Shown here piece after piece: positions 19,642-54,030 of a DNA stretch of 64,000 bases. The position numbers and the translations under genes are program-made. The stretch covers positions 151,339-215,338 of the forward strand of contig CAZYIA010000001.1 of NCBI GenBank assembly GCA_964646765.1, in the 5' to 3' direction. Position 1 is the first letter of the stretch. Every line of letters starts with the position of its first letter. The notes below the pieces were generated by a model that saw nothing but the letters and a program-made list of their open reading frames with translations, ran no database searches and was not told where the DNA came from. The stretch is from an uncultured Candidatus Saccharibacteria bacterium. GTDB lineage: Bacteria > Patescibacteriota > Minisyncoccia > Phycocordibacterales > UBA9973.

Positions 19642-21150
19642 ATGGCAGCAAAGCGATACCAACTAAAGAACAACCGAGTCTTAGCTGATCTCAAATTAAA
19701 AAAGAGTGCCTACTGGCAAAAAAAGCGAGAGGCGCATGCACTTTCAGTATTTAAGGATACTATTGCACATGTTCCTGCCTACCGAGATTTTCTTAAAAAG
19801 AATGGTATTAATCCTTCCAAAATAAAAAATTGGAAAGATTTTCAAACGCTTCCGATAATGACTAAAGACTCATATCTCCGAAGCTATGAACTCCAGGAAC
19901 TTTGCAAAAAGGGAACACTCGCGCATCCTTTAGTATTTACTTCAACTTCAGGATCAACAGGAGAACCATATTATTTTCCGCGCTTTGAAAAACTAGATCG
20001 TGAATATTCAGTACTCGCTGAGTTTTACATGAGTCAGCACAAAGAGACGCTAAAGGGTCCAACGCTGGTGGTAATTTGTTTTGGTATGGGAGTCTGGATT
20101 GGTGGACTGATTACCTACCAAGCGTTTGAATCAGCAAGTCGTGAAAGTGGTTACCCAATTTCTATTATCACACCGGGAACGAATAAAGATGAGATTATCA
20201 AAGTTTTGGCGTCTCTTTCGCCACGATTTTCGCAAACACTGCTTATTGGATATCCGCCATTTGTAAAAGACATTATCGATGAAGCATCGCGCAAGAAAAT
20301 TCCGCTCAAGAAATATAATCTTCGATTGATGTTTGCCGCAGAATCTTTTTCGGAAACATTTCGTGATTATCTTGCTCGAAAAGCTGGTATCGAAAATGTG
20401 TATCGCGACACCTTAAATATTTATGGTAGTGCCGACATTGGTGCGATGGCCTGGGAAACTGGAGTTTCAATTTTAATTAAGCGCTTGTTGAAGAAAAATA
20501 AAAAGCTTTACAGTGCTTTCTTTCCGTCAGTTTCGCGAATGCCAACGCTTGCACAGTACAATCCTGAATTTATTACTTTTGAATCTATTGATAACAAGAT
20601 TGCATTAACTGCTAATAATGCGCTGCCGCTTGTTCGTTATGCTCTTGGAGATCATGGGGGCGTGATTGATTTTGCTAAGGCGCAGCGTATCTGTAAAGAA
20701 CACGGATATGATTTACTCGCAGAAGCAAAAAAAGTGGGAATTCCGACGGTGCCTGAACTACCATTTGTGTATGTATATGAGCGAAGCGATTTCTCGACAA
20801 AACTCTATGGGGCGATTGTTTATCCAGAATATATCAAAGGAGCGCTTGAACGAGATGAATTTGCTGATGTACTCACTGGTAAGTTCACGATGTTCACCCG
20901 CAATGGAAAAAATCAGGATCAATATCTTGAAGTGAATGTTGAACTCACGCCTGAAGTTAAAGAGTCAGCGGAACTTGCTGCTCAGGTTTCCGACCGCATT
21001 TTTGAGGAACTTATTGAACGAAGCACGGAATGCCGAAATAACGCTCAACTTCTTGGCGACAAAATGAAGCCAAAAATCATTTTTTGGCAGAACGGTGACC
21101 CAACTTACTTCAAAACAGGTATTAAGCAAAAATGGGTAAAAAAGGCCTAA
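19642..21150 (+). CDS. PaaK / coenzyme-F390-synthetase-like adenylate-forming enzyme
   Basis: P-loop FTSTSGSTGEPYYFP. N-terminal AHVPAYRDFLKKNGINPSKIKNWKDFQTLPIMTKDSY matches the PaaK-family N-domain. Confidence 0.7.
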   Translation: MAAKRYQLKNNRVLADLKLKKSAYWQKKREAHALSVFKDTIAHVPAYRDFLKKNGINPSKIKNWKDFQTLPIMTKDSYLRSYELQELCKKGTLAHPLVFTSTSGSTGEPYYFPRFEKLDREYSVLAEFYMSQHKETLKGPTLVVICFGMGVWIGGLITYQAFESASRESGYPISIITPGTNKDEIIKVLASLSPRFSQTLLIGYPPFVKDIIDEASRKKIPLKKYNLRLMFAAESFSETFRDYLARKAGIENVYRDTLNIYGSADIGAMAWETGVSILIKRLLKKNKKLYSAFFPSVSRMPTLAQYNPEFITFESIDNKIALTANNALPLVRYALGDHGGVIDFAKAQRICKEHGYDLLAEAKKVGIPTVPELPFVYVYERSDFSTKLYGAIVYPEYIKGALERDEFADVLTGKFTMFTRNGKNQDQYLEVNVELTPEVKESAELAAQVSDRIFEELIERSTECRNNAQLLGDKMKPKIIFWQNGDPTYFKTGIKQKWVKKA

Positions 21151-23463: not shown

Positions 23464-25152
23464 ATGTTTAACGCGTATTCATCCAACTCAAACTTTAATC
23501 TTCTTATTGTCGGTGTTGCAATTGCGGCTATTGCGTTACTCGGTTTTACCGTCTTCTTTAACGATCGTAAAAGCAGAACAAATCGTGCCTTTTTCTACTA
23601 CGCAATCGCAGTGGTATTCTGGGGTATTTCAAACTATCTTGAATATCAATTTCAGTCTCCCACGATTGTCCTTTTTGCTTTACGAGCGCATATCGCGATT
23701 TCTGTATTGTATTGTCTTACCTTTTTCCGTTTAGCATATGTATTCCCATGGAGTGAAGTTACTTTTCCGCGTTGGCATCGGTTTTTTGTTTTTCCTCTAG
23801 CGCTCGTTACTATGGTGGTAGCTTTTACACCGCTTACTTTTAAACGCATTCTATCTTTAGCTCCGGTTGGAGAAGTAACGCCTGCACAAACTGGGCCGGG
23901 AATGGGCTTTTTTGGAATCATGGCATTTGGTCTACTTGTTGGCGGCCTTGCCATACTTTGGAGAAAGCGAAATAAAAGTTCTGGAGTAGAGAAGAAACAA
24001 ATTACATATGTCTGGTGGGGGATGCTTATTACTGCACTTCTAACTTTAACCTTTAATTTTGTTTTACCAGTTCTCTTTAATAACGTACGCTATATTCCAT
24101 TTGCCGCTCTCTTTGTTCTGCCGTTTATTTCTCTCATTTCATACACTATTTATCGACATCAGCTCTTTAACGTTAAAGTTGCTGCCGTTGCCCTCGTTAC
24201 CTTTATTCTTACCGTCTTCAGTCTCTTCAACGTTATCTACGCAACAAGCACAAGCCAAGTTGTCTTCAATGTTATTTTCTTCACTTCAATCTTGGCCGGA
24301 AGCGTTCTTCTCATTCGCAGTATTCTTCGAGAAATTGAACAGCGAGAAAAATTAGAGATTTTAGATAAAGAACTCGAAACTGCAAACGAAAAATTAAAAG
24401 AGCTTGATAAGCTGAAGACCGAATTTCTTTCCCTTGCTTCTCATCAATTGCGAAGTCCACTCACCGCTGTAAAAGGCTACACATCGATGCTCTTGGAAGG
24501 AGACTTCGGCGCTGTGAATCCGCAACAAAAAGAGGCTATTGACCGCGTGTATCAGTCGGTAACCCACCTTACTCGTGTTGTGGAAGATCTTCTTAATGTT
24601 ACTAAGATTGAACTTGGTGGTATGCAGTACACCATGCGCCCGTTTGACCTCGATACAGCAACCGAAGAACTTGTTTCGGAACTTCGAGTGACAGCCGAAA
24701 AGAAAGGACTCAAACTTATTTTTGATTGCGACACCAAGAAGAGCTACCCAATATTGGGTGACGAAGAGAAGCTCCGCCAGGTATTTCTTAACTTTATTGA
24801 TAACTCAATTAAATATACCGAAAAAGGCGAAGTTCGTGTTTCAGTTACGAAAGACACTGCTAAAAATCAAATTACTTTTGCAGTTACAGATACTGGTATG
24901 GGTATGACTCCTGAGACTCAGGCTAGCCTCTTCCAGAAATTTGTCCGTACAGACAAATCAAAAGAAGTTAACCGTGGTGGCTCGGGTCTTGGTTTGTATC
25001 TCGCAAAGCAGATTGTTGAGGCCCATCATGGCAGTCTCATTGTTTCTTCTCCAGGTGTTGGAAAAGGTTCCACGTTTGGCGTCGTGCTCTCACTTGCCTC
25101 ACCATCAACTTCATCAACAGAGTGGAAGAGTGGTAGTGAAAAAAACGCTTAG
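23464..25152 (+). CDS. Sensor histidine kinase with a multi-TM N-terminal domain (no cognate response regulator adjacent)
   Basis: At least 7 hydrophobic helices; HisKA FLSLASHQLRSPLTAV; HATPase_c region. Confidence 0.85.
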   Translation: MFNAYSSNSNFNLLIVGVAIAAIALLGFTVFFNDRKSRTNRAFFYYAIAVVFWGISNYLEYQFQSPTIVLFALRAHIAISVLYCLTFFRLAYVFPWSEVTFPRWHRFFVFPLALVTMVVAFTPLTFKRILSLAPVGEVTPAQTGPGMGFFGIMAFGLLVGGLAILWRKRNKSSGVEKKQITYVWWGMLITALLTLTFNFVLPVLFNNVRYIPFAALFVLPFISLISYTIYRHQLFNVKVAAVALVTFILTVFSLFNVIYATSTSQVVFNVIFFTSILAGSVLLIRSILREIEQREKLEILDKELETANEKLKELDKLKTEFLSLASHQLRSPLTAVKGYTSMLLEGDFGAVNPQQKEAIDRVYQSVTHLTRVVEDLLNVTKIELGGMQYTMRPFDLDTATEELVSELRVTAEKKGLKLIFDCDTKKSYPILGDEEKLRQVFLNFIDNSIKYTEKGEVRVSVTKDTAKNQITFAVTDTGMGMTPETQASLFQKFVRTDKSKEVNRGGSGLGLYLAKQIVEAHHGSLIVSSPGVGKGSTFGVVLSLASPSTSSTEWKSGSEKNA

Positions 25153-26531
25153 CTTTTCTTAGTTAATTTCGTTCCTTCAGCTGTATCAAATACAGTAAAA
25201 CCTAAAGACTCAAGTTCGCCGCGGAGCTTATCACTTTCTACCCAGTTTTTCTCTTTACGCGCAATATCACGTTTTGAAAGTAACGCGCTAACTTCTGATG
25301 AAATCAGAGGAGTGAGTTTTTCTAAGGAAAGTCCAAGTACTGCATCAAACGAAAGAAGAGTGGCTCGTTTTACTTCTCCGGTAAGGGAACTATCACCAAG
25401 ACATTCATGTACAATAGCGAGTGCTTTTGGTACATCAAGGTCGTCTGCTAAAGCATCGTTAAAGCGTATGAGATAAGTCTCATCGGGAATACCTCCAGCT
25501 GGCGAAAGAGCAACAGCTGTTCGAATACGTTTGAGGGCTTCAGATGCGCCATCGAGAGCTTCCCAAGTGAAGTTTAAATGCGAACGATAGTGAGCACCGA
25601 GATAAAAGTAACGGAGCGCTAATGGGTCAATACCACGATCAATTACATCTTGAATGCGAACATAATTTCCAAGACTCTTGCTCATTTTTTCGCCATTTAC
25701 GTTAAGGAAAGCGTAGTGGACCCAATATTTCACAAATTCTTTTCCGGTTGCCGCCTCAGATTGAGCAATCTCGTTTTCATGATGCACTGGGATATGATCA
25801 ATACCGCCAGTATGAATATCAAAACTCTCGCCAAGGTATTTCATGCTCATAGCTGAACATTCAATATGCCAGCCAGGAAAACCATCACCAAACGGAGATG
25901 GCCAGTGCATTGCATGGTTAGAAAATCGGCCAACACGCTTAAACCAGAGTGCAAAATCGTACGGATTTTTCTTAAAACTACCAGTCTCAACTTCTTCACG
26001 TACAGCTACGAGCTTGTCAGCTAATTTTTGACCAGAAAGTTCTCCGTACTTAGGAAACTTAGCAACATCAAAATAGACTGCTTCGCTTGTATCGTAGGCA
26101 AAGCCGCGTTTGATTAATTTTTCTACTAAAGCAATTTGCTCGGGAATATGTTCAGTTGCCTTGGCGATAACATGTGGACGCAGAATATTAAGCGTATCCA
26201 TCGCAATGTAGAAGTCGTCAGTAAAAAATTGAGCTACCTCCCATACTGTTTTTCCTGTTTTGGCGGCTCCTTTTTCGAGCTTGTCTTCTCCTTCGTCACC
26301 ATCAGAAGATAGATGGCCAACATCGGTAACATTTTGGACATGACGAACGGTAAAACCAGCCTGCTCAAGGGTTCGGCGGAGAATATCGTCCATGGTGTAT
26401 TTGCGTCCGTGACCAATGTGGGCATAGTCGTAGACCGTCATGCCACAGGTATACATGCCAATATTTTTTCCTTCAAGCGGAATGATTTCCTCGACGCTAC
26501 GGGATTTCGTGTTGTAGATTTTTACAGCCAT
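25149..26531 (-). CDS. cysS: Cysteinyl-tRNA synthetase
   Basis: MYTCGMTVYDYAHIGHGR (HIGH) and KMSKSLGN. Confidence 0.95.
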   Translation of the reverse strand: MAVKIYNTKSRSVEEIIPLEGKNIGMYTCGMTVYDYAHIGHGRKYTMDDILRRTLEQAGFTVRHVQNVTDVGHLSSDGDEGEDKLEKGAAKTGKTVWEVAQFFTDDFYIAMDTLNILRPHVIAKATEHIPEQIALVEKLIKRGFAYDTSEAVYFDVAKFPKYGELSGQKLADKLVAVREEVETGSFKKNPYDFALWFKRVGRFSNHAMHWPSPFGDGFPGWHIECSAMSMKYLGESFDIHTGGIDHIPVHHENEIAQSEAATGKEFVKYWVHYAFLNVNGEKMSKSLGNYVRIQDVIDRGIDPLALRYFYLGAHYRSHLNFTWEALDGASEALKRIRTAVALSPAGGIPDETYLIRFNDALADDLDVPKALAIVHECLGDSSLTGEVKRATLLSFDAVLGLSLEKLTPLISSEVSALLSKRDIARKEKNWVESDKLRGELESLGFTVFDTAEGTKLTKKS

Positions 26532-30065: not shown

Positions 30066-31070
30066 ATGGAAAAAAGGGAGATTCGTGCGCTTACAGGAGA
30101 TCGTCCAACGGGAAAATTACATCTTGGTCACTACGTTGGCTCAATTAAAAGCAGACTAGCGCTCCAGGACACTGCCACCGCTTCTTTTTATATGGTGGCC
30201 GATGTTCAAGGACTTACTGATAATGCTGACAATCCTGAAAAAGTTCGTTCGAATGTATTGGAAGTAGCTCTCGATAATCTTGCCTGCGGCGTTGACCCAG
30301 CGAAGACAACTTTTTTCATTCAGTCAGAAGTTCCAGAAATTGCTGAGCTCACTATTTTTTTCATGAATCTGGTAACGGTGGCTGAAGTTGGCAGAAATCC
30401 AACCGTAAAAACAGAAATTGCTCAAAAACAATTTGGTGAAAGCGTGCCACTTGGTTTTTTCTGTTATCCAGTTTCGCAGGCAGCCGATATTTTGTTTACT
30501 CGAGCAAACACCGTGCCAGTTGGTGACGACCAGTTGCCAATGATTGAGTTAACTCGCGAAATTGCTCGAGCATTTAATCGAACTTACCAAACTGATCTTT
30601 TCCCGGAACCACAGGCAATGACTGGCATGCGATTAGTCGGCACAGACGGTACAGCAAAAATGTCGAAGTCGCTTGGCAATACGATCTATTTCGCTGACTC
30701 TAACGAAATGATTGAACAGAAAGTGAAAGAGATGTACACCGATCCGAATCACATTCATGTAGCGGATCCAGGCAAGGTGGAGGGCAACGTGGTATTTACC
30801 TATCTCGATGTTTTTGATCCCAAAAAAGACGAAGTGGCCGAACTCAAAGCTCAATATGAAAAAGGTGGCTTAGGTGACATGGTCATTAAAAAGCGTCTCA
30901 CTGAAGTGCTTCAAGATTTCATTTCACCAATTCGCGAGCGTCGTGAACATTTAGCGAAAGATCCAAAACAGGTGATGGACATTCTGCGTGCCGGCACCCA
31001 GCGAGCCCGCGAAGAAGGAAAAGTAACTCTCGATCTTGTTCGTCAAGCGATGAAAATTAACTATTTCTAA
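30066..31070 (+). CDS. trpS: Tryptophanyl-tRNA synthetase
   Basis: TGDRPTGKLHLGHYVG (HIGH-type) and KMSKSLGN. Start set at the internal ATG 30066 (MEKREIR..), giving 334 aa. Confidence 0.85.
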   Translation: MEKREIRALTGDRPTGKLHLGHYVGSIKSRLALQDTATASFYMVADVQGLTDNADNPEKVRSNVLEVALDNLACGVDPAKTTFFIQSEVPEIAELTIFFMNLVTVAEVGRNPTVKTEIAQKQFGESVPLGFFCYPVSQAADILFTRANTVPVGDDQLPMIELTREIARAFNRTYQTDLFPEPQAMTGMRLVGTDGTAKMSKSLGNTIYFADSNEMIEQKVKEMYTDPNHIHVADPGKVEGNVVFTYLDVFDPKKDEVAELKAQYEKGGLGDMVIKKRLTEVLQDFISPIRERREHLAKDPKQVMDILRAGTQRAREEGKVTLDLVRQAMKINYF

Positions 31071-31072
31071 GT

Positions 31073-31348
31073 ATGAAAAAGCAGTTACTCTCACGCAAGG
31101 AAACGCTTCGTAGTATTCAGGCGGCAAGCAAAAAACCAGAAGTACTTGAAGCACTGCTCGAGCATATGCTTACTCCTGGTGAGTATGATGAGCTAGTAGT
31201 TCGTACTGAAATCTTAAAACGGTTGCTAAAGGGTGAACAGCAAAGGGTAATTGCTAAAGACCTAGGTATCGGAATAGCTACGGTTACTCGCGGCAGCCGC
31301 GAAGTTCAGCGGATGACGCCAGAGATAAAAAAGATTATACTAAAGTAG
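31073..31348 (+). CDS. TrpR-family (Trp repressor / YerC-YecD-like) DNA-binding protein
   Basis: GIGIATVTRGSREVQ matches the TrpR recognition-helix region GAGIATITRGSNSL. Separated from the trpS stop (31068..31070) by 2 nt. Confidence 0.6.
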   Translation: MKKQLLSRKETLRSIQAASKKPEVLEALLEHMLTPGEYDELVVRTEILKRLLKGEQQRVIAKDLGIGIATVTRGSREVQRMTPEIKKIILK

Positions 31349-31349
31349 T

Positions 31350-31580
31350 ATGTTTTTCGCCTTTATCTTTCATCTCTTCAAGTTCCTGATAACGGTGCTC
31401 CTGGGTATTATTTACTTACCACTTAACCATTTTTTGCTTTGGATTGGTGGTGAGTACCAGTCTATAAAGAAAACTAATATTGTGCTGTACTGGTTGGTTC
31501 GCATCGCTATTTTCCCAATTTGGGGTGTAGCGGCTATATTTTCAGCTCCTTACGAAATGCTGCTTGATAGCATGCACTAA
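31350..31580 (+). CDS. Small membrane protein (76 aa)
   Basis: Hydrophobic ORF immediately after the trpR-like gene. Confidence 0.4.
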   Translation: MFFAFIFHLFKFLITVLLGIIYLPLNHFLLWIGGEYQSIKKTNIVLYWLVRIAIFPIWGVAAIFSAPYEMLLDSMH

Positions 31581-31589
31581 AGGCGCTAT

Positions 31590-31760
31590 AGTACCAAAAC
31601 CGACGATCCTGCTGACACCAGGGGAGGTATGAGAGTAATCTCCGGGAGCGCCCGTAATAGTGCAGAGAGTAGAAACGTAGGGTGGCACCGCGGTTGAAAA
31701 ATCGCCCCTGCAAATTAACAGTGTTAATTTGGAGAGGCGATTTTTTGCTTCTCGCATACA
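31590..31760 (+). promoter_or_regulatory. T-box riboswitch leader upstream of aspS
   Basis: Conserved T-box sequence AACGTAGGGTGGCACCGCGG. Followed by a long terminator hairpin (ATCGCCCCTGCAAATTAACAGTGTTAATTTGGAGAGGCGAT) plus a TTTTTT run. GAGAG k-turn-like and AGTGCAGAGAG elements lie upstream. Confidence 0.7.
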
Positions 31761-31761
31761 T

Positions 31762-33144
31762 ATGCGAACATATATAAAAGATTTAAGCGCGAAGATTGGA
31801 GAAGAAGTTTCTGTTTCTGGTTGGGTGGATGTGCGCCGCGACCAAGGCAAAATGGTGTTTCTTGATTTGCGCGACATGAGCGGCAAAGTGCAGTGCATTG
31901 TGCTTCCGATGCATGCCGAAGCTATTGAAGCAGCGAAAGAACTCCGTACTGAATGGGTAGTAAAGGTAAAAGCGAAAGTAAATCAGCGCCCAGAAAAAAA
32001 CCGAAAGGCTGATGTTTTGAACGGCGACATTGAACTTGAGATTTTAGGTATTGAAGTCTTAAACAAAGCGGAAACTCTCCCGTTTGATGTTTCAGGCAAC
32101 ACGCGCGAGATCAATGAAGATCTTCGCATGAAGTATAAGTACCTTGATCTTCGCAGTGAACGCATGCAAAAAAATATCCGCATGCGCGATAAAATTGTTT
32201 CCTTCTTCCGCGACTACATGCATAAAAATGATTTCGTTGAAATCGAAACGCCGATCATGATGAAGGGAACTCCAGAAGGCAGTCGCGAGTATATTGTGCC
32301 TTCACGCTTGGAGCCAGGAAAGTTTTATGTGCTTCCGCAGTCACCACAGCAATTCAAGCAGCTCTCGATGGTCGCCGGTTTTGAAAAATATTTCCAAATC
32401 GCTCGCTGTATGCGCGACGAAGACACTCGCGGTGATCGTCAGCCAGAATTCACCCAGCTCGACTACGAACTTTCATTTGTTGAGCAGGAGGACGTTATTT
32501 CGTATACCGAAGCGATGTATATCGAAATGGTAAAAACGGTGTACCCAGAAAAGCGTATTCAGCAAATTCCATTTCCACGTTTAACCTATGCTGAATCAAT
32601 GGAAAAGTATGGCAACGATAAACCTGATCTTCGCGAAGATAAAAATGATCCAAACCTCTTGGCATTTTGCTGGGTGGTAGATTTCCCAATGTTTGAAAAA
32701 GATGATGAGGGTGGCGTACAGGCTGTGCATCATCCATTTACCTCACCAAAAGCAGAAGATGCACATCTTCTTGATACCGAGCCATTAAAAGCTCGTGCTA
32801 ATGCCTACGATATCGTGCTCAACGGTTACGAACTCGGTGGAGGATCAATCCGAATTCACAAGCGTGAACTTCAGAATAAAATTTTTGAGCTTCTCGGTCT
32901 TTCAGCTGAAACTATTCAGGCTCGCTTCGGTCATATGCTCACCGCTTTCGAATATGGTGCTCCACCACACGGTGGTTGTGCCCAGGGTATCGATCGTATC
33001 GTCATGCTTCTTCAAAATGAACCAAACATTCGTGAAGTTATTGCTTTCCCAAAGACTGGAGAAGGGAAGGATCTCATGATGGGCGCTCCATCCGAAGTTG
33101 CCGACAAACAGCTCCGAGAACTCAAAATCAAAATCGCGCTCTAG
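31762..33144 (+). CDS. aspS: Aspartyl-tRNA synthetase, short (461 aa) form lacking the bacterial GAD insertion
   Basis: Class II motifs [26 protein letters not shown] and GGGSIRIHK. Start set at ATG 31762, downstream of the T-box terminator. Confidence 0.88.
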
Positions 33145-33152
33145 AAAATAAA

Positions 33153-33197
33153 ATGCCCTGTCTAAATTGCTACATCTAGACAGGGCATTTTAATTTT
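33153..33197. terminator. Bidirectional intrinsic terminator
   Basis: ATGCCCTGTCTA..TAGACAGGGCAT, a 12-bp stem, plus TTTAATTTT. Confidence 0.55.
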
Positions 33198-45292: not shown

Positions 45293-46744
45293 ATGTCAGA
45301 TAAGATTGTTACTCGTTTTGCCCCAAGTCCAACTGGCTTTATGCACGTTGGAGGTATTCGTACCGCCCTGTTTGCTTGGGCCTGGGCGCGTAAAAATAAA
45401 GGTACGTTTATTCTTCGTATTGAAGACACCGACAAAGAACGTGAAGTTCCTGGTTCAGTTGCCCATATTATTGAATCGCTGAAGTGGCTTGGCATTACCT
45501 GGGATGAAGGTCCCGAAATAGATGGTCCGCACGCACCATATTTACAGTCACAACGCCTTGATCTCTATAAAAAGTACGCAGCTATTTTAATTGAAAAAGG
45601 TTTTGCCTACGCAGATCCATATTCAGTAGAAGAATTAGAAGCATTTCGCAAAGAGGCTGAAAGAAATTCGCAACCGTTTCTTTTTCGGAATCATCGACCA
45701 GAGAATCCTCCAGTGTGGGATGGTACTACGCCGCTTCGTTTTAAAACTCCTGAAATAAAAAGCTATGCATGGTTCGATTTAGTGCGTGGTGATCTTTCTG
45801 CTGGCCCTGAAGCTCTCGATGACTTTATCCTGATAAAAAGTGATGGTTATCCAACCTATAATTTTGCGCACATTGTAGATGATATTGAGATGGGTGTAAC
45901 TCATGTAATGCGTGGCGAAGAATTTATTTCTTCAACACCAAAGTTTCTTGCGCTCTACGATGCGCTTGGTATAACAGCACCACATTTTGTAACCATGCCA
46001 CCAATTTTAGGTGAAGGTGGTAAGAAGAAACTTTCAAAACGTGATGGTGCAAAAGATGTGCTCGAGTATCGCACCGAAGGTTATCTGCCTGAAGCATTAA
46101 TAAATTTTCTCGCTTTTCTCGGCTGGAATCCTGGAGATGAACGTGAAGTAATGACTTCACAAGAATTTATTGAAGCGTTTGATATTGCTCGTATTGGCCG
46201 CTCTGGTTCACAGTGGAACGAAGAAAAATTAAACTGGCTCAATCGTGAACACATGAAGAAGCTTTCCTATGAAGAGCAGGTAAAGCGTTTCATCTCATTC
46301 TTGCCTGATTCGGTAAAAAATTTGCCGGGCTACACTGGCGCTAAAGCTGCCCGTATTGCACCAATTGCTCTCGATCGTATTCAAAAATTTAGTGATGTAG
46401 TTACCATGACCACTGAAGGAGAATTTGATTACTATTTCTCAAAGCCAAAGTACGACGGAGTTAAACTTACCTGGAAAGAAGATGCTCCAGACGTAACTAA
46501 AAAGCATCTTGGTGAAGTAGTAAAACTTTTGGTGAAAGTAGACGAAGATACGTTTACTCGCGATGAAGTGAAAAAAGCTATCTGGGATTATGCCGAATCT
46601 GTTGGTCGTGGCAATGTTCTCTGGCCAACTCGTGTCGCGCTTTCTGGTCGCGAAAAATCCCCAGACCCGTTTGTCTTAGCTGAACTTCTTGGTAAAGAAG
46701 AAACTATTACGCGGCTTAATGAAGCGGTAGAAACGCTTAACTAA
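45293..46744 (+). CDS. gltX: Glutamyl-tRNA synthetase
   Basis: RFAPSPTGFMHVGGIRTALFAWAWAR (HIGH-type), KLSKR, tRNA-binding C-domain. Confidence 0.95.
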   Translation: MSDKIVTRFAPSPTGFMHVGGIRTALFAWAWARKNKGTFILRIEDTDKEREVPGSVAHIIESLKWLGITWDEGPEIDGPHAPYLQSQRLDLYKKYAAILIEKGFAYADPYSVEELEAFRKEAERNSQPFLFRNHRPENPPVWDGTTPLRFKTPEIKSYAWFDLVRGDLSAGPEALDDFILIKSDGYPTYNFAHIVDDIEMGVTHVMRGEEFISSTPKFLALYDALGITAPHFVTMPPILGEGGKKKLSKRDGAKDVLEYRTEGYLPEALINFLAFLGWNPGDEREVMTSQEFIEAFDIARIGRSGSQWNEEKLNWLNREHMKKLSYEEQVKRFISFLPDSVKNLPGYTGAKAARIAPIALDRIQKFSDVVTMTTEGEFDYYFSKPKYDGVKLTWKEDAPDVTKKHLGEVVKLLVKVDEDTFTRDEVKKAIWDYAESVGRGNVLWPTRVALSGREKSPDPFVLAELLGKEETITRLNEAVETLN

Positions 46745-50898: not shown

Positions 50899-52275
50899 AT
50901 GAATCGCATTGAACACGACAGCCTGGGCCCTGTTTCTATAGGTGAAAAAAATATATGGGGAGCGCAAACCGAGCGTACCCGAGAGAATTTTAAGGCAGGT
51001 ACCCCGGTACCGCTTTTGGTTGTGTACGCTCTTACTCAAATCAAGAAAGCTGCTGCCAAAACACATCAATCACTCAAACTGCTGACACCACTAAAAGCAA
51101 AGGCGATTATTATTGCGTGCGATGAAATTTTAAAAGGGAAGTGGGACGATCAATTTCCTGTTTCGGTTTTTCAAAGTGGCTCAGGAACGCAAACTAATAT
51201 GAATGTCAACGAAGTCATCGCTAACCGCGCTCACCAGCTTTTAGACGGTAAGCTTAGTGATACCACTCGTTTGGTACATCCAAACGATGACGTAAATAAG
51301 TCGCAATCAACCAACGATACGTTTCCGGCGGCAATGCATATGGCGCTTCATCGGGCACTCACCCTCGAGCTCTTGCCGGTTCTTATCGGTTTTGAAAAAA
51401 CGCTGATAAAAAAATCTAAAGCATTTAAAAATAATATTAAAGTTGGACGCACGCATTTAATGGATGCCGTCCCAATTTCTTTTGGTCAAGAATTTTCTGG
51501 ATATGCTGCTCAAATTGCTACTACTCGTCGCGCGATAGAAGATTCACTTAAGAATCTCAGAGAACTTCCACTTGGTGGCACTGCGGTAGGAACTGGACTT
51601 AATGCGCCAAAACAATTTGCCGAGCTTACCGTTAAGAACATTCGTACAGACACAAAAGAACCATTTATGGTAGCTAAGAACACATTTGCTCATATGGCCG
51701 CACATGAGGCCGAAGTTCTTACTTCCAGTGCGCTTAAAGTACTTGCCGTTGCTCTTACTAAAATTGCTAACGATATTCGTCTTGGAGCTTCTGGTCCACA
51801 CACAGGTTTTGCTGACATTATAATTTCGGACAACGAACCTGGTTCTTCTATCATGCCTGGTAAGGTAAACCCAACACAGGCAGAGAGTATGCTGATGGTA
51901 TGTCAGAGAGTTATTGGGAACGATCTCACAGTAACACTGGGCGGAATGAATGGTCAATTTGAACTTAATGTATCAAAACCGCTCATCATTGCGACAGTTC
52001 TTGAGTCAGTTGATCTTCTTACACAAGCAATTGTTTCGTTTGATGCTAAGTGTGTTTCTGGTATTAAGATCAATTCCAAAAAATCCCTAGAAAATCTTGA
52101 TCGGTCTCTTATGAACGTCACTGCATTGAACACTCGTATTGGTTATGAGCGAGCAGCCAAAGCAGTGCAGCAAGCAAAAAAAGAAGGTAAAACATTACGT
52201 CAGGTAATTCTTGAACAGAAACTTCTTACTGAAAAAGAATTTGATCAGGTAATGAACTATACAAAACTCGTTTAA
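50899..52275 (+). CDS. fumC: Class II fumarate hydratase (fumarase/aspartase family)
   Basis: GSGTQTNMNVNEV and GSSIMPGKVNPTQAE signatures. N-terminus resembles FumC more than AspA. Confidence 0.75.
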   Translation: MNRIEHDSLGPVSIGEKNIWGAQTERTRENFKAGTPVPLLVVYALTQIKKAAAKTHQSLKLLTPLKAKAIIIACDEILKGKWDDQFPVSVFQSGSGTQTNMNVNEVIANRAHQLLDGKLSDTTRLVHPNDDVNKSQSTNDTFPAAMHMALHRALTLELLPVLIGFEKTLIKKSKAFKNNIKVGRTHLMDAVPISFGQEFSGYAAQIATTRRAIEDSLKNLRELPLGGTAVGTGLNAPKQFAELTVKNIRTDTKEPFMVAKNTFAHMAAHEAEVLTSSALKVLAVALTKIANDIRLGASGPHTGFADIIISDNEPGSSIMPGKVNPTQAESMLMVCQRVIGNDLTVTLGGMNGQFELNVSKPLIIATVLESVDLLTQAIVSFDAKCVSGIKINSKKSLENLDRSLMNVTALNTRIGYERAAKAVQQAKKEGKTLRQVILEQKLLTEKEFDQVMNYTKLV

Positions 52276-52839: not shown

Positions 52840-54030
52840 ATGGAAATAGCAGAACGAATGTCACGCCTCGGAACCGAAACAGCTTTCGAGGTTTTAGTTA
52901 AAGCGCGTGCCCTCGAAGCACAAGGTAAAAATATTGTTCACCTTGAAATTGGTGAACCAGATTTTGATACCCCTAAAAATATTGTTGAAGCCGCGAAGAC
53001 AGCGCTCGACACAGGCTACACTCACTATGGTCCATCAGCGGGCTTAGTTCCTGCACGTGAGGCGATTGCAAAGTACGTAATGAAAACTCGCCCAGGTTTT
53101 ACCTGTACCGTTGATGAGGTAGTAATTACTCCAGGAGCAAAGCCAATCATGTTCTACTCTATTTTGGCTACCGTTAATGAAGGCGATGAAGTTATTTATC
53201 CGAATCCAGGATTCCCAATCTATGAATCAATGATCAACTTTGTTGGAGCAAAGCCAGTACCACTTCCATTAAAAGAAGAAAAGGAATTCCGTTTTGATAT
53301 TGAAGACCTCAAGGCTCGCATCACTCCAAAAACTAAGATGGTGATCGTAAATACACCGCAAAATCCAACAGGTGGTATTTTGACGAAAGAAGATATCGAA
53401 GCAATTTCTGCACTCGCTATCGAGCACAACTTTATTGTTTTCTCGGATGAAATTTATTCTCGCATTGTCTACGGAGATTTTCAGCATTTCTCATTTCTTC
53501 AAGTACCAGGCATGAAGGAACGCACTATCATGCTCGATGGTTTTTCAAAAACCTACGCCATGACCGGTTGGCGTTTAGGCTACGGTGTTATGCCAAAAGA
53601 AATTGCTACACTCGTTGCAAAGCTCCAAACAAACTGTGCAAGTTGCACCTCAAGCTTTACCCAAATGGCCGGCGTTGAAGCACTTGAGGGTCCACAAGAG
53701 TCAGTAGATGAAATGGTTGCCGAGTTTAAACGCCGTCGCGATGCAATCGTAGATGGTCTAAACTCTATCCCAGGATTCCGCTGCCACCGTCCGCACGGTG
53801 CCTTTTATGTATTTCCTAATATCACCGGAACTGGCATGAAGAGCCAGGAAATTGCCGACTATCTTCTCTATGAAGGTGGCGTAGCTTGTCTTTCTGGAAC
53901 TGCTTTCGGCGAATATGGTGAAGGATTTATTCGTTTCAGTTACGCAACCTCAATCGAAAATATCAACGAAGCAATTGCTCGAGTAAAGAAAGCTATCGAG
54001 AAGAAATTAGGAACCAAGGCGGCTGTATAA
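52840..54030 (+). CDS. Class I/II pyridoxal-phosphate aminotransferase (aspartate aminotransferase-like)
   Basis: SKTYAMTGWRLGY PLP-lysine motif; 396 aa. Confidence 0.85.
   Translation: MEIAERMSRLGTETAFEVLVKARALEAQGKNIVHLEIGEPDFDTPKNIVEAAKTALDTGYTHYGPSAGLVPAREAIAKYVMKTRPGFTCTVDEVVITPGAKPIMFYSILATVNEGDEVIYPNPGFPIYESMINFVGAKPVPLPLKEEKEFRFDIEDLKARITPKTKMVIVNTPQNPTGGILTKEDIEAISALAIEHNFIVFSDEIYSRIVYGDFQHFSFLQVPGMKERTIMLDGFSKTYAMTGWRLGYGVMPKEIATLVAKLQTNCASCTSSFTQMAGVEALEGPQESVDEMVAEFKRRRDAIVDGLNSIPGFRCHRPHGAFYVFPNITGTGMKSQEIADYLLYEGGVACLSGTAFGEYGEGFIRFSYATSIENINEAIARVKKAIEKKLGTKAAV

Follow-up and report, generated by a model that had tools for sequence, protein, structure and literature searches.

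The leader upstream of aspS in the 64,000-nt stretch of Patescibacteria DNA analyzed here (the window) is very probably a functional T-box that controls transcription by attenuation in response to the charging state of tRNA-Asp. Its codon corresponds to the gene it precedes, its antiterminator and terminator exclude each other, its helices covary, and its terminator is conserved among relatives, in a genome where Shine-Dalgarno (SD) sites are nearly absent (Table 1). An earlier note, made from the letters of the sequence, had proposed a T-box leader with a competing terminator in control of aspS, and the sequence elements, exclusive folds, covariation, and terminator conservation described below bear this out. 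The T-box sequence, which the note called canonical, is so, as is the antiterminator; the leader as a whole departs from the canonical form in its Rfam score, its Stem I, and the apical position of its codon.

Table 1. Predicted features of the aspS leader and transcription unit (window positions)
Feature	Position	Strand	Description
Promoter-like site	31564..31592	+	-35 TTGATA 31564-69, 17-nt spacer, -10 TATAGT 31587-92
Ultrashort Stem I	31599..31628	+	30 nt total; K-turn plus 5-bp hairpin
Stem I C-stem	31599-601 with 31626-28	+	
Stem I K-turn bulge	31602-04	+	GAC, 3 nt
Stem I tandem G.A/A.G	31605-06 with 31624-25	+	
Stem I 5-bp stem	31607-11 with 31619-23	+	
Stem I apical loop	31612-18	+	CUGACAC, 7 nt
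Specifier codon	31614-16	+	GAC (Asp), then conserved purine A31617
Stem II remnant	31631..31642	+	4-bp hairpin GAGA-GUAA-UCUC, without S-turn (fold)
Stem IIA/B pseudoknot	31643..31663	+	
IIA	31643-46 with 31651-54	+	CGGG/CCCG
F-box-like element	31651-60	+	CCCGUAAUAG
IIB	31648-50 with 31661-63	+	Loop GCG with UGC
Purine-rich linker	31664..31676	+	AGAGAGUAGAAAC; occupies usual Stem III place, no hairpin
Antiterminator	31677..31711	+	Helix A1, T-box bulge, helix A2
Antiterminator helix A1	31677-82 with 31706-11	+	
T-box bulge	31683-89	+	UGGCACC, 7 nt, between helices A1 and A2
Antiterminator helix A2	31690-94 with 31701-05	+	
Intrinsic terminator	31696..31746	+	Long hairpin, core AUCGCC 31701-06 with GGCGAU 31736-41, U6 31741-46
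aspS	31762..33144	+	Aspartyl-tRNA synthetase, 460 aa, bacterial-type with GAD insertion domain deleted
Bidirectional terminator hairpin	33149..33192	.	End of aspS transcription unit; terminator scan, 19 pairs

T-box sequence and competing folds

The sequence AGGGTGGCACCGCGG was read directly at 31679-31693. The 14-nt T-box consensus AGGGTGGNACCGCG has one exact match in the window (31679-31692) and none in 100 shuffles, in agreement with the canonical T-box sequence reported for this leader in the earlier note. The T-box sequence AGGGUGGNACCGCG is placed in the 7-nt bulge between helices A1 and A2, where UGGC would pair with the tRNA 3' end, GCCA. In isolation, the antiterminator (A1, bulge, and A2) folds at -13.1 kcal/mol, and in the alignment 94.8% of its cells pair versus 40 to 55% in slid controls, with three pairs changed on both sides. 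The G-C pair that replaces a G.U wobble at the base of A2 (G31690-C31705) was considered as a lineage-specific oddity and set aside, as the canonical leaders L086, L117, and L160 also read CGCCCC. A pairing of GUGC (31660-63) with GCAC of the T-box bulge was likewise discarded, not being kept in the relative L081.

The 5' strand of the terminator includes the 3' strands of A2 and A1, and because 31701-31711 is used by both folds, terminator and antiterminator are mutually exclusive. At -25.9 kcal/mol the terminator is predicted to be stronger than the antiterminator (-12.6 to -14.6 kcal/mol), and 15 nt separate the end of its U6 run from the aspS ATG at 31762, matching the competing hairpin and T6 run recognized at the outset. 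An equivalent hairpin with a U run was present in 19 of 19 family members of the GTDB set. The intergenic region 5' of aspS measures 181 nt (31581-31761), a correction of the 170 nt first given. The promoter-like site has 10 of 12 consensus matches (consensus scan), relatives carry a -10-like box at an equal distance 5' of Stem I, and the predicted transcription start, near 31599, falls at the base of Stem I.

SD-like motifs occur at 2 of 44 gene starts in the window and no SD was found before aspS; because the genome hardly uses such sites, regulation is assigned to transcription attenuation. The alternative is translational control by masking of the ribosome-binding site, as in actinobacterial ileS T-boxes with an ultrashort Stem I. 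Architecturally, Stem I does match Class III T-boxes, which are mostly translational (PMC10482949), and GGAGAGG is found in the 3' strand of the hairpin. However, this motif lies 24 nt from the ATG, six U residues follow the hairpin, a U run is found in every relative, and L147, which has a real SD, carries it downstream of the terminator. Together with the rarity of SD-like motifs in the window, these features render ribosome-binding-site masking very improbable and favor attenuation of transcription.

Whole-leader detection gave a mixed outcome for the scan with the Rfam T-box model (RF00230) that the earlier note had suggested. With 40.8 bits, the leader fell 52 bits short of the gathering score of 93, hence a default scan of the window at the gathering threshold returned no match; at an E-value threshold, it was the sole notable match in the window, with E 1e-07 locally and 1.3e-05 across the 64 kb. 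The low score is due to the ultrashort Stem I: in the Rfam alignment 5 nt stand in for 74 Stem I model positions. At the place of Stem III, 2 nt are aligned versus 17 in the model. Our own covariance model identified one site in the window with 57.9 bits (E 1e-10), the runner-up scoring 12 bits. While a score below the Rfam gathering level would suit a chance T-box resemblance beside an ordinary terminator of the upstream operon, the exact 14-mer, the E-value of the family model, and the existence of a conserved, covarying family always upstream of aspS all argue otherwise. Chance resemblance is refuted by the comparative data and its probability is negligible. Scans with RF00230 and our own model found no T-box upstream of cysS, trpS, or gltX in the window.

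Ultrashort Stem I and reduced Stem II and Stem III regions

The leader has neither an internal specifier loop nor the long Stem I whose distal platform, made up of an AG bulge and a distal loop, stacks on the tRNA elbow. At the sequence level, the base of Stem I is a K-turn with the GA motif, with an invariant 5' GA and a covarying C-stem. Both-side changes occurred in 8 of 8 Stem I pairs and 92.7% of cells pair, versus 32 to 61% in slid controls, in an alignment (A6) of 16 leaders that was fitted by hand to the structure. A 97%-identical relative replaces G-C with U.G and A-U with G-C in Stem I. Single-sequence folding did not single out Stem I (z +0.53 vs shuffles) and favored a slightly different register. 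Because MAFFT, applied to full-length leaders, broke Stem I of the short members, the core alignment A4 and the hand-padded alignments A6 and A7 were used; alignment A5 was excluded from the pair counts because covariance model R1 placed Stem I on the wrong hairpin in members with long Stem II inserts (L009, L014, L030, and L036).

The specifier is an Asp codon matching the regulated aspS, followed by a purine, and sits in the apical rather than an internal loop. GACA was found at the loop position in 15 of the 16 aligned leaders, the sole replacement being AACA (Asn), always before aspS. Relatives show no loop triplet other than GAC or AAC, in each case 5' of AspRS genes and with UGGC in the bulge. 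Their apical loops range from 5 to 9 nt, mostly 6 or 7. It is this exchange of GAC for AAC that confirms the specifier position. A GAC had been pointed out before in connection with the specifier, and both the GACA conservation and the exchange before aspS support it in that role; the coordinates given then (31612..31614) were 2 nt off, that triplet reading CTG and the loop GAC lying at 31614-31616. The second GAC of the leader, at 31602-31604, forms the K-turn bulge.

Stem II is represented by a short hairpin in the predicted fold, and no S-turn was found in the window leader. Some relatives have, on the same basal helix, a complete Stem II carrying the S-turn motifs AAGAAA/AGUAGAA; by rough motif heuristics, which make some false calls, about half of the relatives were scored as having S-turn motifs. 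In L081 the Stem II hairpin is retained with a UUAA loop. For the IIA/B pseudoknot, all 10 sequences compared pair at all 7 positions, and 3 of 3 IIB pairs covary (100% pairing vs 26 to 52% in slid controls), in sequences that were chosen solely by the IIA and F-box pattern and aligned by hand to fit the structure. No Stem III hairpin is present, 31655-31679 folding to 0 kcal/mol; the purine-rich string GAGAG..AAA persists, and the arrangement 5'-RRRxG-Stem III-AA-3' is lost. A Stem III hairpin occurs in relatives L009, L014, L021, L036, L041, and L070. AGUAGAA at 31668-74 was considered as a displaced S-turn strand and is more likely the purine linker of the family (GAGUCGAAAA in relatives).

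Distribution among relatives and the AspRS enzyme

Our covariance model matched at the aspS loci of 18 of 80 Patescibacteria species, all 18 matches lying upstream of aspS or of an ORF-aspS operon. The discriminator pattern was found at >120 metagenome sites, and the same ultrashort Stem I preceded AspRS genes in ~40 of 80 metagenome loci examined; L086, L117, and L160, with canonical long-Stem-I aspS leaders, were also among the loci. In L057, L135, and L110 the whole Stem II domain is replaced by a short linker, and versions with a 28-32-nt linker (e.g., L135 and L057), smaller still than the window leader, are conserved in several lineages. The window contains no tRNA gene, and no tRNA-Asp or tRNA-Asn genes were found in the 61 loci searched along with it. 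Our literature search found no report of T-boxes in connection with the candidate phyla radiation (CPR) or Patescibacteria.

The closest species-level relatives (L001-L008, 76 to 82% AspRS identity) have no T-box, hence the leader is dispensable. Its absence from the nearest species would also be expected of a decaying relic, in which the terminator is a constitutive or leaky attenuator with no tRNA response left, and Stem II and Stem III are shorter than in some relatives. Nevertheless, compensatory Stem I changes separate 97%-identical strains, covariation spans distant lineages, the GACA loop and UGGC bulge are invariant, and the same reductions recur in many independent lineages with the antiterminator/terminator pair always intact, so decay is an improbable explanation. 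In weighing the T-box reading, we counted against it the low Rfam score, missing features held to be "required," weak Stem I folding, dispensability, and the hand alignments.

The ORF at 31762-33144 matched Pfam tRNA_anti-codon and tRNA-synt_2, and Pfam found no GAD domain in it, as anticipated; it encodes 460 aa, not 461. NCBIfam NF001750 matched in two stretches with 651.5 bits (cut-off 443) and the second bacterial-type model of the TIGR00459/NF001750 pair with 589.2 bits (cut-off 374), whereas the scores for the archaeal-type/non-discriminating models TIGR00458 (198.8 bits) and NF003483 (231.2 bits) stayed below the respective cut-offs of 368.4 and 353. Given that the bacterial aspS models passed and the archaeal cut-off was missed, the enzyme is a bacterial-type AspRS with its GAD insertion deleted and is not archaeal/eukaryal-like, the term first used for its length. 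Its alignment with a 593-aa AspRS covers residues 19-336 and 425-589 of the latter, by comparison with which it lacks ~90-125 residues; GAD normally lies between motifs 2 and 3. The best 120 homologs are all from Patescibacteria, are 443 to 492 aa long, and have no GAD, and GAD-less AspRS is the norm in this phylum. Our literature search found no report of GAD-less AspRS in CPR.

GAD-less AspRS homologs, 58 to 68% identical, also lie behind Asn-codon T-boxes. Around ten homologous leaders, including L030, L033, L100, L109, L126, and L147, have AAC (Asn) at the specifier position, all before aspS, which implies that the AspRS enzymes behind them are probably non-discriminating in those lineages. 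The earlier suggestion that the window enzyme is possibly non-discriminating gains indirect support from these leaders. No gatA, gatB, or asnS was found among 16 Pfam-scanned ORFs, including all those of 394 to 502 aa, in the 64 kb that make up a fraction of the genome.

Proposed mechanism and comparison with known T-box systems

For tRNA binding by the leader, the identity of the tRNA, and the regulatory output, we infer the following course. Transcription would probably start near 31599, and the nascent RNA would form the K-turn and short hairpin, showing GAC-A in the apical loop for pairing with the GUC anticodon of tRNA-Asp, while the Stem IIA/B pseudoknot would orient the downstream discriminator. 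An uncharged tRNA would pair through its 3' GCCA with UGGC of the T-box bulge and stabilize the weak antiterminator (~-13 kcal/mol), allowing RNA polymerase to read into aspS; with a charged tRNA, or none, the much stronger terminator (~-26 kcal/mol, U6) would form and transcription would stop at ~31746. As the elbow-binding distal Stem I, the S-turn, and the Stem III hairpin are missing, tRNA recognition seems to depend chiefly on the codon-anticodon and NCCA pairings.

Transcriptional T-boxes are held to need an elbow-binding platform and Stem III has been termed indispensable (PMC7583486), with Stem II being essential where Stem I is truncated (PMC7583486, PMC11297988). The RNA alone could be too slow to capture tRNA and need a helper, candidates being an L7Ae-family K-turn-binding protein or AspRS itself, which would make the leader a T-box-derived ribonucleoprotein switch. 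A helper would fit the strict conservation of the textbook K-turn alongside the loss of the other tRNA contacts. [quoted passage not shown] However, the window yielded no candidate protein, the sequence has no feature that calls for one, and the still smaller versions with a 28-32-nt linker are conserved in several lineages; we regard a helper-dependent switch as unlikely.

Taken as a T-box attenuator, the window leader, and even more so its relatives with a 28-32-nt linker (L135 and L057), may represent a fifth T-box architecture, a proposal that we advance tentatively and rate at just short of an even chance. If true, it would contradict the view that one of two auxiliary contacts plus Stem III is indispensable, and would constitute the smallest natural T-box at ~125-150 nt. 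T-boxes serve as the model system for recognition between RNAs and as targets for antibiotics and synthetic biology. Current structural models hold that a transcriptional T-box depends on a long Stem I for timely capture of the tRNA elbow, whereas the Patescibacteria family combines a short Stem I with a terminator and is conserved and covarying. In this family Stem II, IIA/B, and Stem III have been lost naturally, step by step, which would provide a ready deletion series for the minimal needs of a T-box. These data suggest T-box regulation is present in the CPR, where it is invisible to Rfam-based annotation, and terminator-based control probably reflects missing SD-based initiation in Patescibacteria genomes. 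The GAC to AAC swaps may serve as a genomic read-out of GAD-less AspRS enzymes serving tRNA-Asn.

Among known systems, the leader resembles the Class III T-boxes with an ultrashort Stem I, e.g., the Nocardia farcinica and M. tuberculosis ileS leaders (PMC7583486, PMC10482949, PMC11297988), in several respects: Stem I is short, has a K-turn at its base, and lacks an elbow-binding platform; a small apical loop presents the specifier, with a purine after it; a Stem IIA/B pseudoknot with an F-box is kept; and the T-box bulge and antiterminator-like helix are the same. Unlike these Ile-specific, actinobacterial, SD-masking leaders, it is Asp-specific, belongs to Patescibacteria, and has an intrinsic terminator at its end, in a genome with hardly any use of SD. 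Class III leaders also need a full Stem II whose S-turn clamps the codon-anticodon helix, whereas the window leader has a 4-bp hairpin and no Stem III hairpin. With Class I leaders of the Bacillus subtilis tyrS type it shares the T-box sequence, the UGGN bulge logic, antiterminator/terminator competition, K-turn, IIA/B pseudoknot, and the regulation of an aminoacyl-tRNA synthetase gene through the cognate tRNA. They differ from it in having Stem III, an S-turn in Stem II, and a Stem I of ~90 nt that carries a distal platform and whose specifier loop is internal, and canonical leaders pass the Rfam gathering score. Class II glyQS leaders are similarly transcriptional and without a Stem II S-turn, but are glycine-specific and keep a long Stem I with elbow contact as well as Stem III. 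In Clostridium acetobutylicum, a T-box with an Asn specifier, reportedly described by Saad et al. in 2012 (cited in PMC4206432), is said to control an operon of a non-discriminating AspRS and GatCAB. The relatives with AAC, including the six named above, resemble this system in placing an Asn codon before an AspRS gene, whereas the window leader has GAC (Asp) rather than AAC, and the clostridial leader is reportedly a canonical long-Stem-I T-box.

The aspS leader as a T-box attenuator

The leader of aspS is, as read from its sequence and conservation, a real T-box attenuator, whose tRNA binding, start site and regulatory output are predicted properties. The window belongs to a genome of the Patescibacteria (candidate phyla radiation, CPR), of Nomurabacteria/Paceibacteria type. 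An earlier note had placed a T-box sequence before aspS, followed by a terminator hairpin and a T6 run about 15 nt short of the ATG. Both are there. AGGGTGGCACCGCGG occupies 31679-31693, and the T-box consensus of 14 nt has one exact match in the whole window against none in 100 dinucleotide shuffles; a long hairpin comes next, with a U6 run (31741-31746) that ends 15 nt 5' of the ATG. Three details needed correction, as the gap measures 181 nt rather than 170, the protein has 460 residues rather than 461, and positions 31612-31614 read CTG instead of GAC. The relevant GAC is 31614-16, while a second (31602-04) forms the K-turn bulge.

Features of the aspS locus and predicted elements of its leader, with window positions
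Feature	Position	Description
dnaB		minus strand; upstream end of the local gene order
trpS	30066-31070	directly 5' of the TrpR/YerC-like gene
TrpR/YerC-like gene	31073-31348	91 aa; between trpS and the membrane ORF
Membrane ORF	31350-31580	76 aa; without Pfam hit
Intergenic gap		181 nt between membrane ORF and aspS; carries the T-box leader
Stem I	31599-31628	30 nt; 3-bp C-stem, 3-nt bulge, tandem G.A/A.G, 5-bp stem, apical loop
Apical loop of Stem I		CUGACAC; contains GAC-A
Hairpin	31631-42	4 bp, GUAA cap; at the place of the relatives' full Stem II with S-turn motifs
Stem IIA hairpin		carries F-box-like CCCGUAAUAG
IIB pseudoknot	31648-50 with 31661-63	3 bp
Purine-rich linker		13 nt; unable to fold (segment 31655-79, 0 kcal/mol)
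Antiterminator	A1 31677-82/31706-11; bulge 31683-89; A2 31690-94/31701-05	bulge UGGCACC; -13.1 kcal/mol
Terminator	31696-31746	-25.9 kcal/mol; uses 31701-11, also in the antiterminator
aspS	31762-33144	AspRS, 460 aa
Bidirectional terminator hairpin	33149-33192	19 bp; between aspS and a convergent 211-aa ORF

A scan with Rfam RF00230, proposed in the earlier note, gave a split outcome. At the E-value threshold the model matched 31594-31712 end to end (E 1e-07 locally, 1.3e-05 over the window), but it scored only 40.8 bits, well short of the gathering score of 93, at which nothing in the window is reported. The low score arises because Stem I and Stem III positions are missing from the alignment, 74 model positions of Stem I being reduced to 5 nt and 17 of Stem III to 2 nt. 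The C-stem, 3-nt bulge and tandem G.A/A.G of Stem I form a predicted textbook K-turn. At the base of helix A2 (31690/31705) reviews place a conserved G.U wobble that senses the aminoacyl group; the pair is G-C here, as it also is in canonical long-Stem-I aspS T-boxes from metagenomes (loci L086, L117 and L160), so this is not specific to the window's lineage.

Since the terminator is predicted to be more stable than the antiterminator, termination is the default fold. Uncharged tRNA-Asp would relieve this default and permit aspS transcription, and classical T-box transcription attenuation by this tRNA is the best-supported reading of the leader. The RNA may be sufficient on its own for the switch. 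Masking of the Shine-Dalgarno (SD) sequence, the known mode of ultrashort-Stem-I T-boxes, is very unlikely here: an SD-like motif occurs at only 2 of the 44 gene starts of the window, the ATG is 24 nt away from the hairpin's GGAGAGG, a U run follows the hairpin in all relatives, and many window genes carry a -10-like box close upstream of the start codon, suggesting leaderless mRNAs. These boxes (TAnnnT, 6-12 nt before the ATG) include those at starts 4680, 27436(-), 28510(-), 45293, 50899, 52840 and 58633(-). Together with the scarcity of SD-like motifs, such gene starts suggest that translation initiation in this genome is SD-independent and often leaderless. The hairpin at 33149-33192 shows that intrinsic terminators are in use in the genome.

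A consensus scan found a promoter-like TTGATA-17-TATAGT ending at 31592, from which the RNA would start at the base of Stem I; relatives have -10-like boxes at a similar position. No terminator was found between the upstream operon and the leader, hence read-through transcripts may also carry it. Genes for CysRS (25149-26531(-)), TrpRS (30066-31070) and GluRS (45293-46744) share the window with aspS; none is preceded by a T-box, and within the window the element is specific to aspS. Elsewhere in the window, a Lyase_1/FumaraseC_C enzyme (aspartase or fumarase, 50899-52275) and a nearby class I/II aminotransferase (52840-54030) may serve aspartate metabolism, and 19642-21150 encodes a 502-aa ORF without Pfam hit.

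Distribution and covariation of the leader family

Among 80 loci of the best species-level AspRS relatives, all Patescibacteria MAGs, a motif search found a T-box upstream of aspS in 16, raised to 18 by R1, a covariance model built from the family leaders (Stem I plus discriminator). R1 has a single site in the window (57.9 bits, E 1e-10), the next match scoring 12 bits with filters off. A strain whose AspRS is 97% identical to the window's (L081/L082) shares the leader; in Stem I a G-C pair is replaced by U.G and an A-U pair by G-C, and in IIB G.U is replaced by G-C. Its A2 loop (L081:1309-1485) is lengthened by an insertion of 23 nt, and L021 has a longer one at that place.

Both-side changes occur in all eight Stem I pairs, with 92.7% of cells paired, compared with 32-61% after sliding the partner. 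For the antiterminator the values are 94.8% and 40-55%, with both-side changes in three pairs, and for IIA/B 100% and 26-52%, with covariation in 3/3 pseudoknot pairs. The IIA/B sequences were picked by the IIA plus F-box pattern only. Alignment of Stem I and of IIA/B was done by hand, which biases it toward the model; chance pairing is nevertheless unlikely in view of how many pair types occur and of the slid-partner controls. A hairpin and U run overlapping the 3' strand of the antiterminator are present in 19/19 members of the species-genome set.

A metagenome scan with the discriminator pattern returned more than 120 sites among the matches listed. About 40 of the 80 examined share the K-turn and the short hairpin, whose loop reads YUGACA, and precede either a GAD-less bacterial-type AspRS (52-84% identical) or an archaeal-type aspartate-tRNA(Asn) ligase; one leader (L118) precedes a full-length 593-aa AspRS. 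The family is patchy in distribution: no T-box was found in the nearest species (L001-L008, 76-82% AspRS identity), and the membrane ORF-aspS pairing is kept in relatives with and without the element, L004-L008 being among the latter. Loci L033 (1637-2490) and L108 have a variant with an asymmetric internal loop in Stem I instead of the K-turn, preceding a 226-aa ORF of unknown function with aspS directly after.

Specifier codon and AspRS type

Of 16 aligned leaders, 15 have GACA at an identical position in the loop. The sole alternative seen is AACA (Asn), found at L030 (2302-2445), L033 (1637-1760), L090, L098, L100, L108, L109, L126, L145 and L147, in every case with an AspRS gene downstream, of GAD-less bacterial or archaeal type; at L147 the enzyme is archaeal-type, with the NCBIfam name aspartate-tRNA(Asn) ligase. 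This natural GAC/AAC swap confirms that the apical-loop triplet is the specifier. The window's own leader carries the Asp codon and is predicted to monitor tRNA-Asp. A G73 discriminator base would match the UGGC of the bulge, and G73 is the discriminator known for bacterial tRNA-Asp and tRNA-Asn alike; no genes for either tRNA were found in the window or 61 loci for this check.

The AspRS lacks GAD, as the earlier note says, and is archaeal/eukaryal-like in length only; the enzyme is of bacterial type. Bacterial-type aspS NCBIfam models match in two stretches (651 and 589 bits), whereas the archaeal/non-discriminating model scores 199 bits, under its cut-off of 368, and in alignment with a GAD-containing AspRS the protein covers residues 19-336 and 425-589, which indicates a bacterial AspRS with GAD excised. 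Among the listed matches, 120 of 120 homologues (73-100% identity) are 443-492 aa long without GAD, so its loss is the lineage norm and no peculiarity of this genome; the few with a source name are all labelled Patescibacteria-group. Because an AAC specifier precedes GAD-less bacterial-type enzymes 58-68% identical to the window's, those enzymes must supply tRNA-Asn, implying that they would be non-discriminating. By extension, the window's AspRS may be so too; gatA, gatB and asnS were not found among suitably sized ORFs of the 64-kb window.

Comparison with known T-box classes

The literature search found no paper joining T-boxes with CPR or Patescibacteria, though its coverage was incomplete and an earlier description is possible; TBDB mentions truncated-Stem-I sequences without detail (PMC7778990). 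Current literature recognizes four architectures: Class I with a long Stem I with platform and a Stem II S-turn, Class II (glyQS) with a long Stem I and single-stranded linker, and Classes III and IV, mostly translational, with a short or intermediate Stem I and a required Stem II (PMC10482949). Binding of tRNA is boosted by platform, S-turn or both (PMC10482949, PMC7583486), transcriptional T-boxes generally needing the platform (PMC7583486), and in the M. tuberculosis ileS T-box tRNA binding was lost on shortening of Stem II (PMC11297988).

Relatives form a series from leaders with a full, S-turn-containing Stem II and Stem III (L014, L113) to minimal ones in which a purine-rich linker of 28-32 nt alone joins Stem I to the antiterminator (L057, L064, L110, L111, L116, L125, L135, L148). 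The latter (e.g., L135:401-493(-), L057:2335-2424) consist of K-turn and specifier hairpin, linker, and antiterminator plus terminator, without Stem II, IIA/B or Stem III. L135, on a short contig, is close to the window (84% identity over 113 AspRS residues) and has the same upstream membrane ORF.

The window leader resembles Class III in its Stem I, K-turn and IIA/B pseudoknot, yet differs in lacking an S-turn and in using a terminator as expression platform. It also has no Stem III hairpin, an element described as indispensable (PMC7583486). The regulatory logic is ordinary, but the architecture is a new variant, and the phylum is one whose T-boxes escape annotation.
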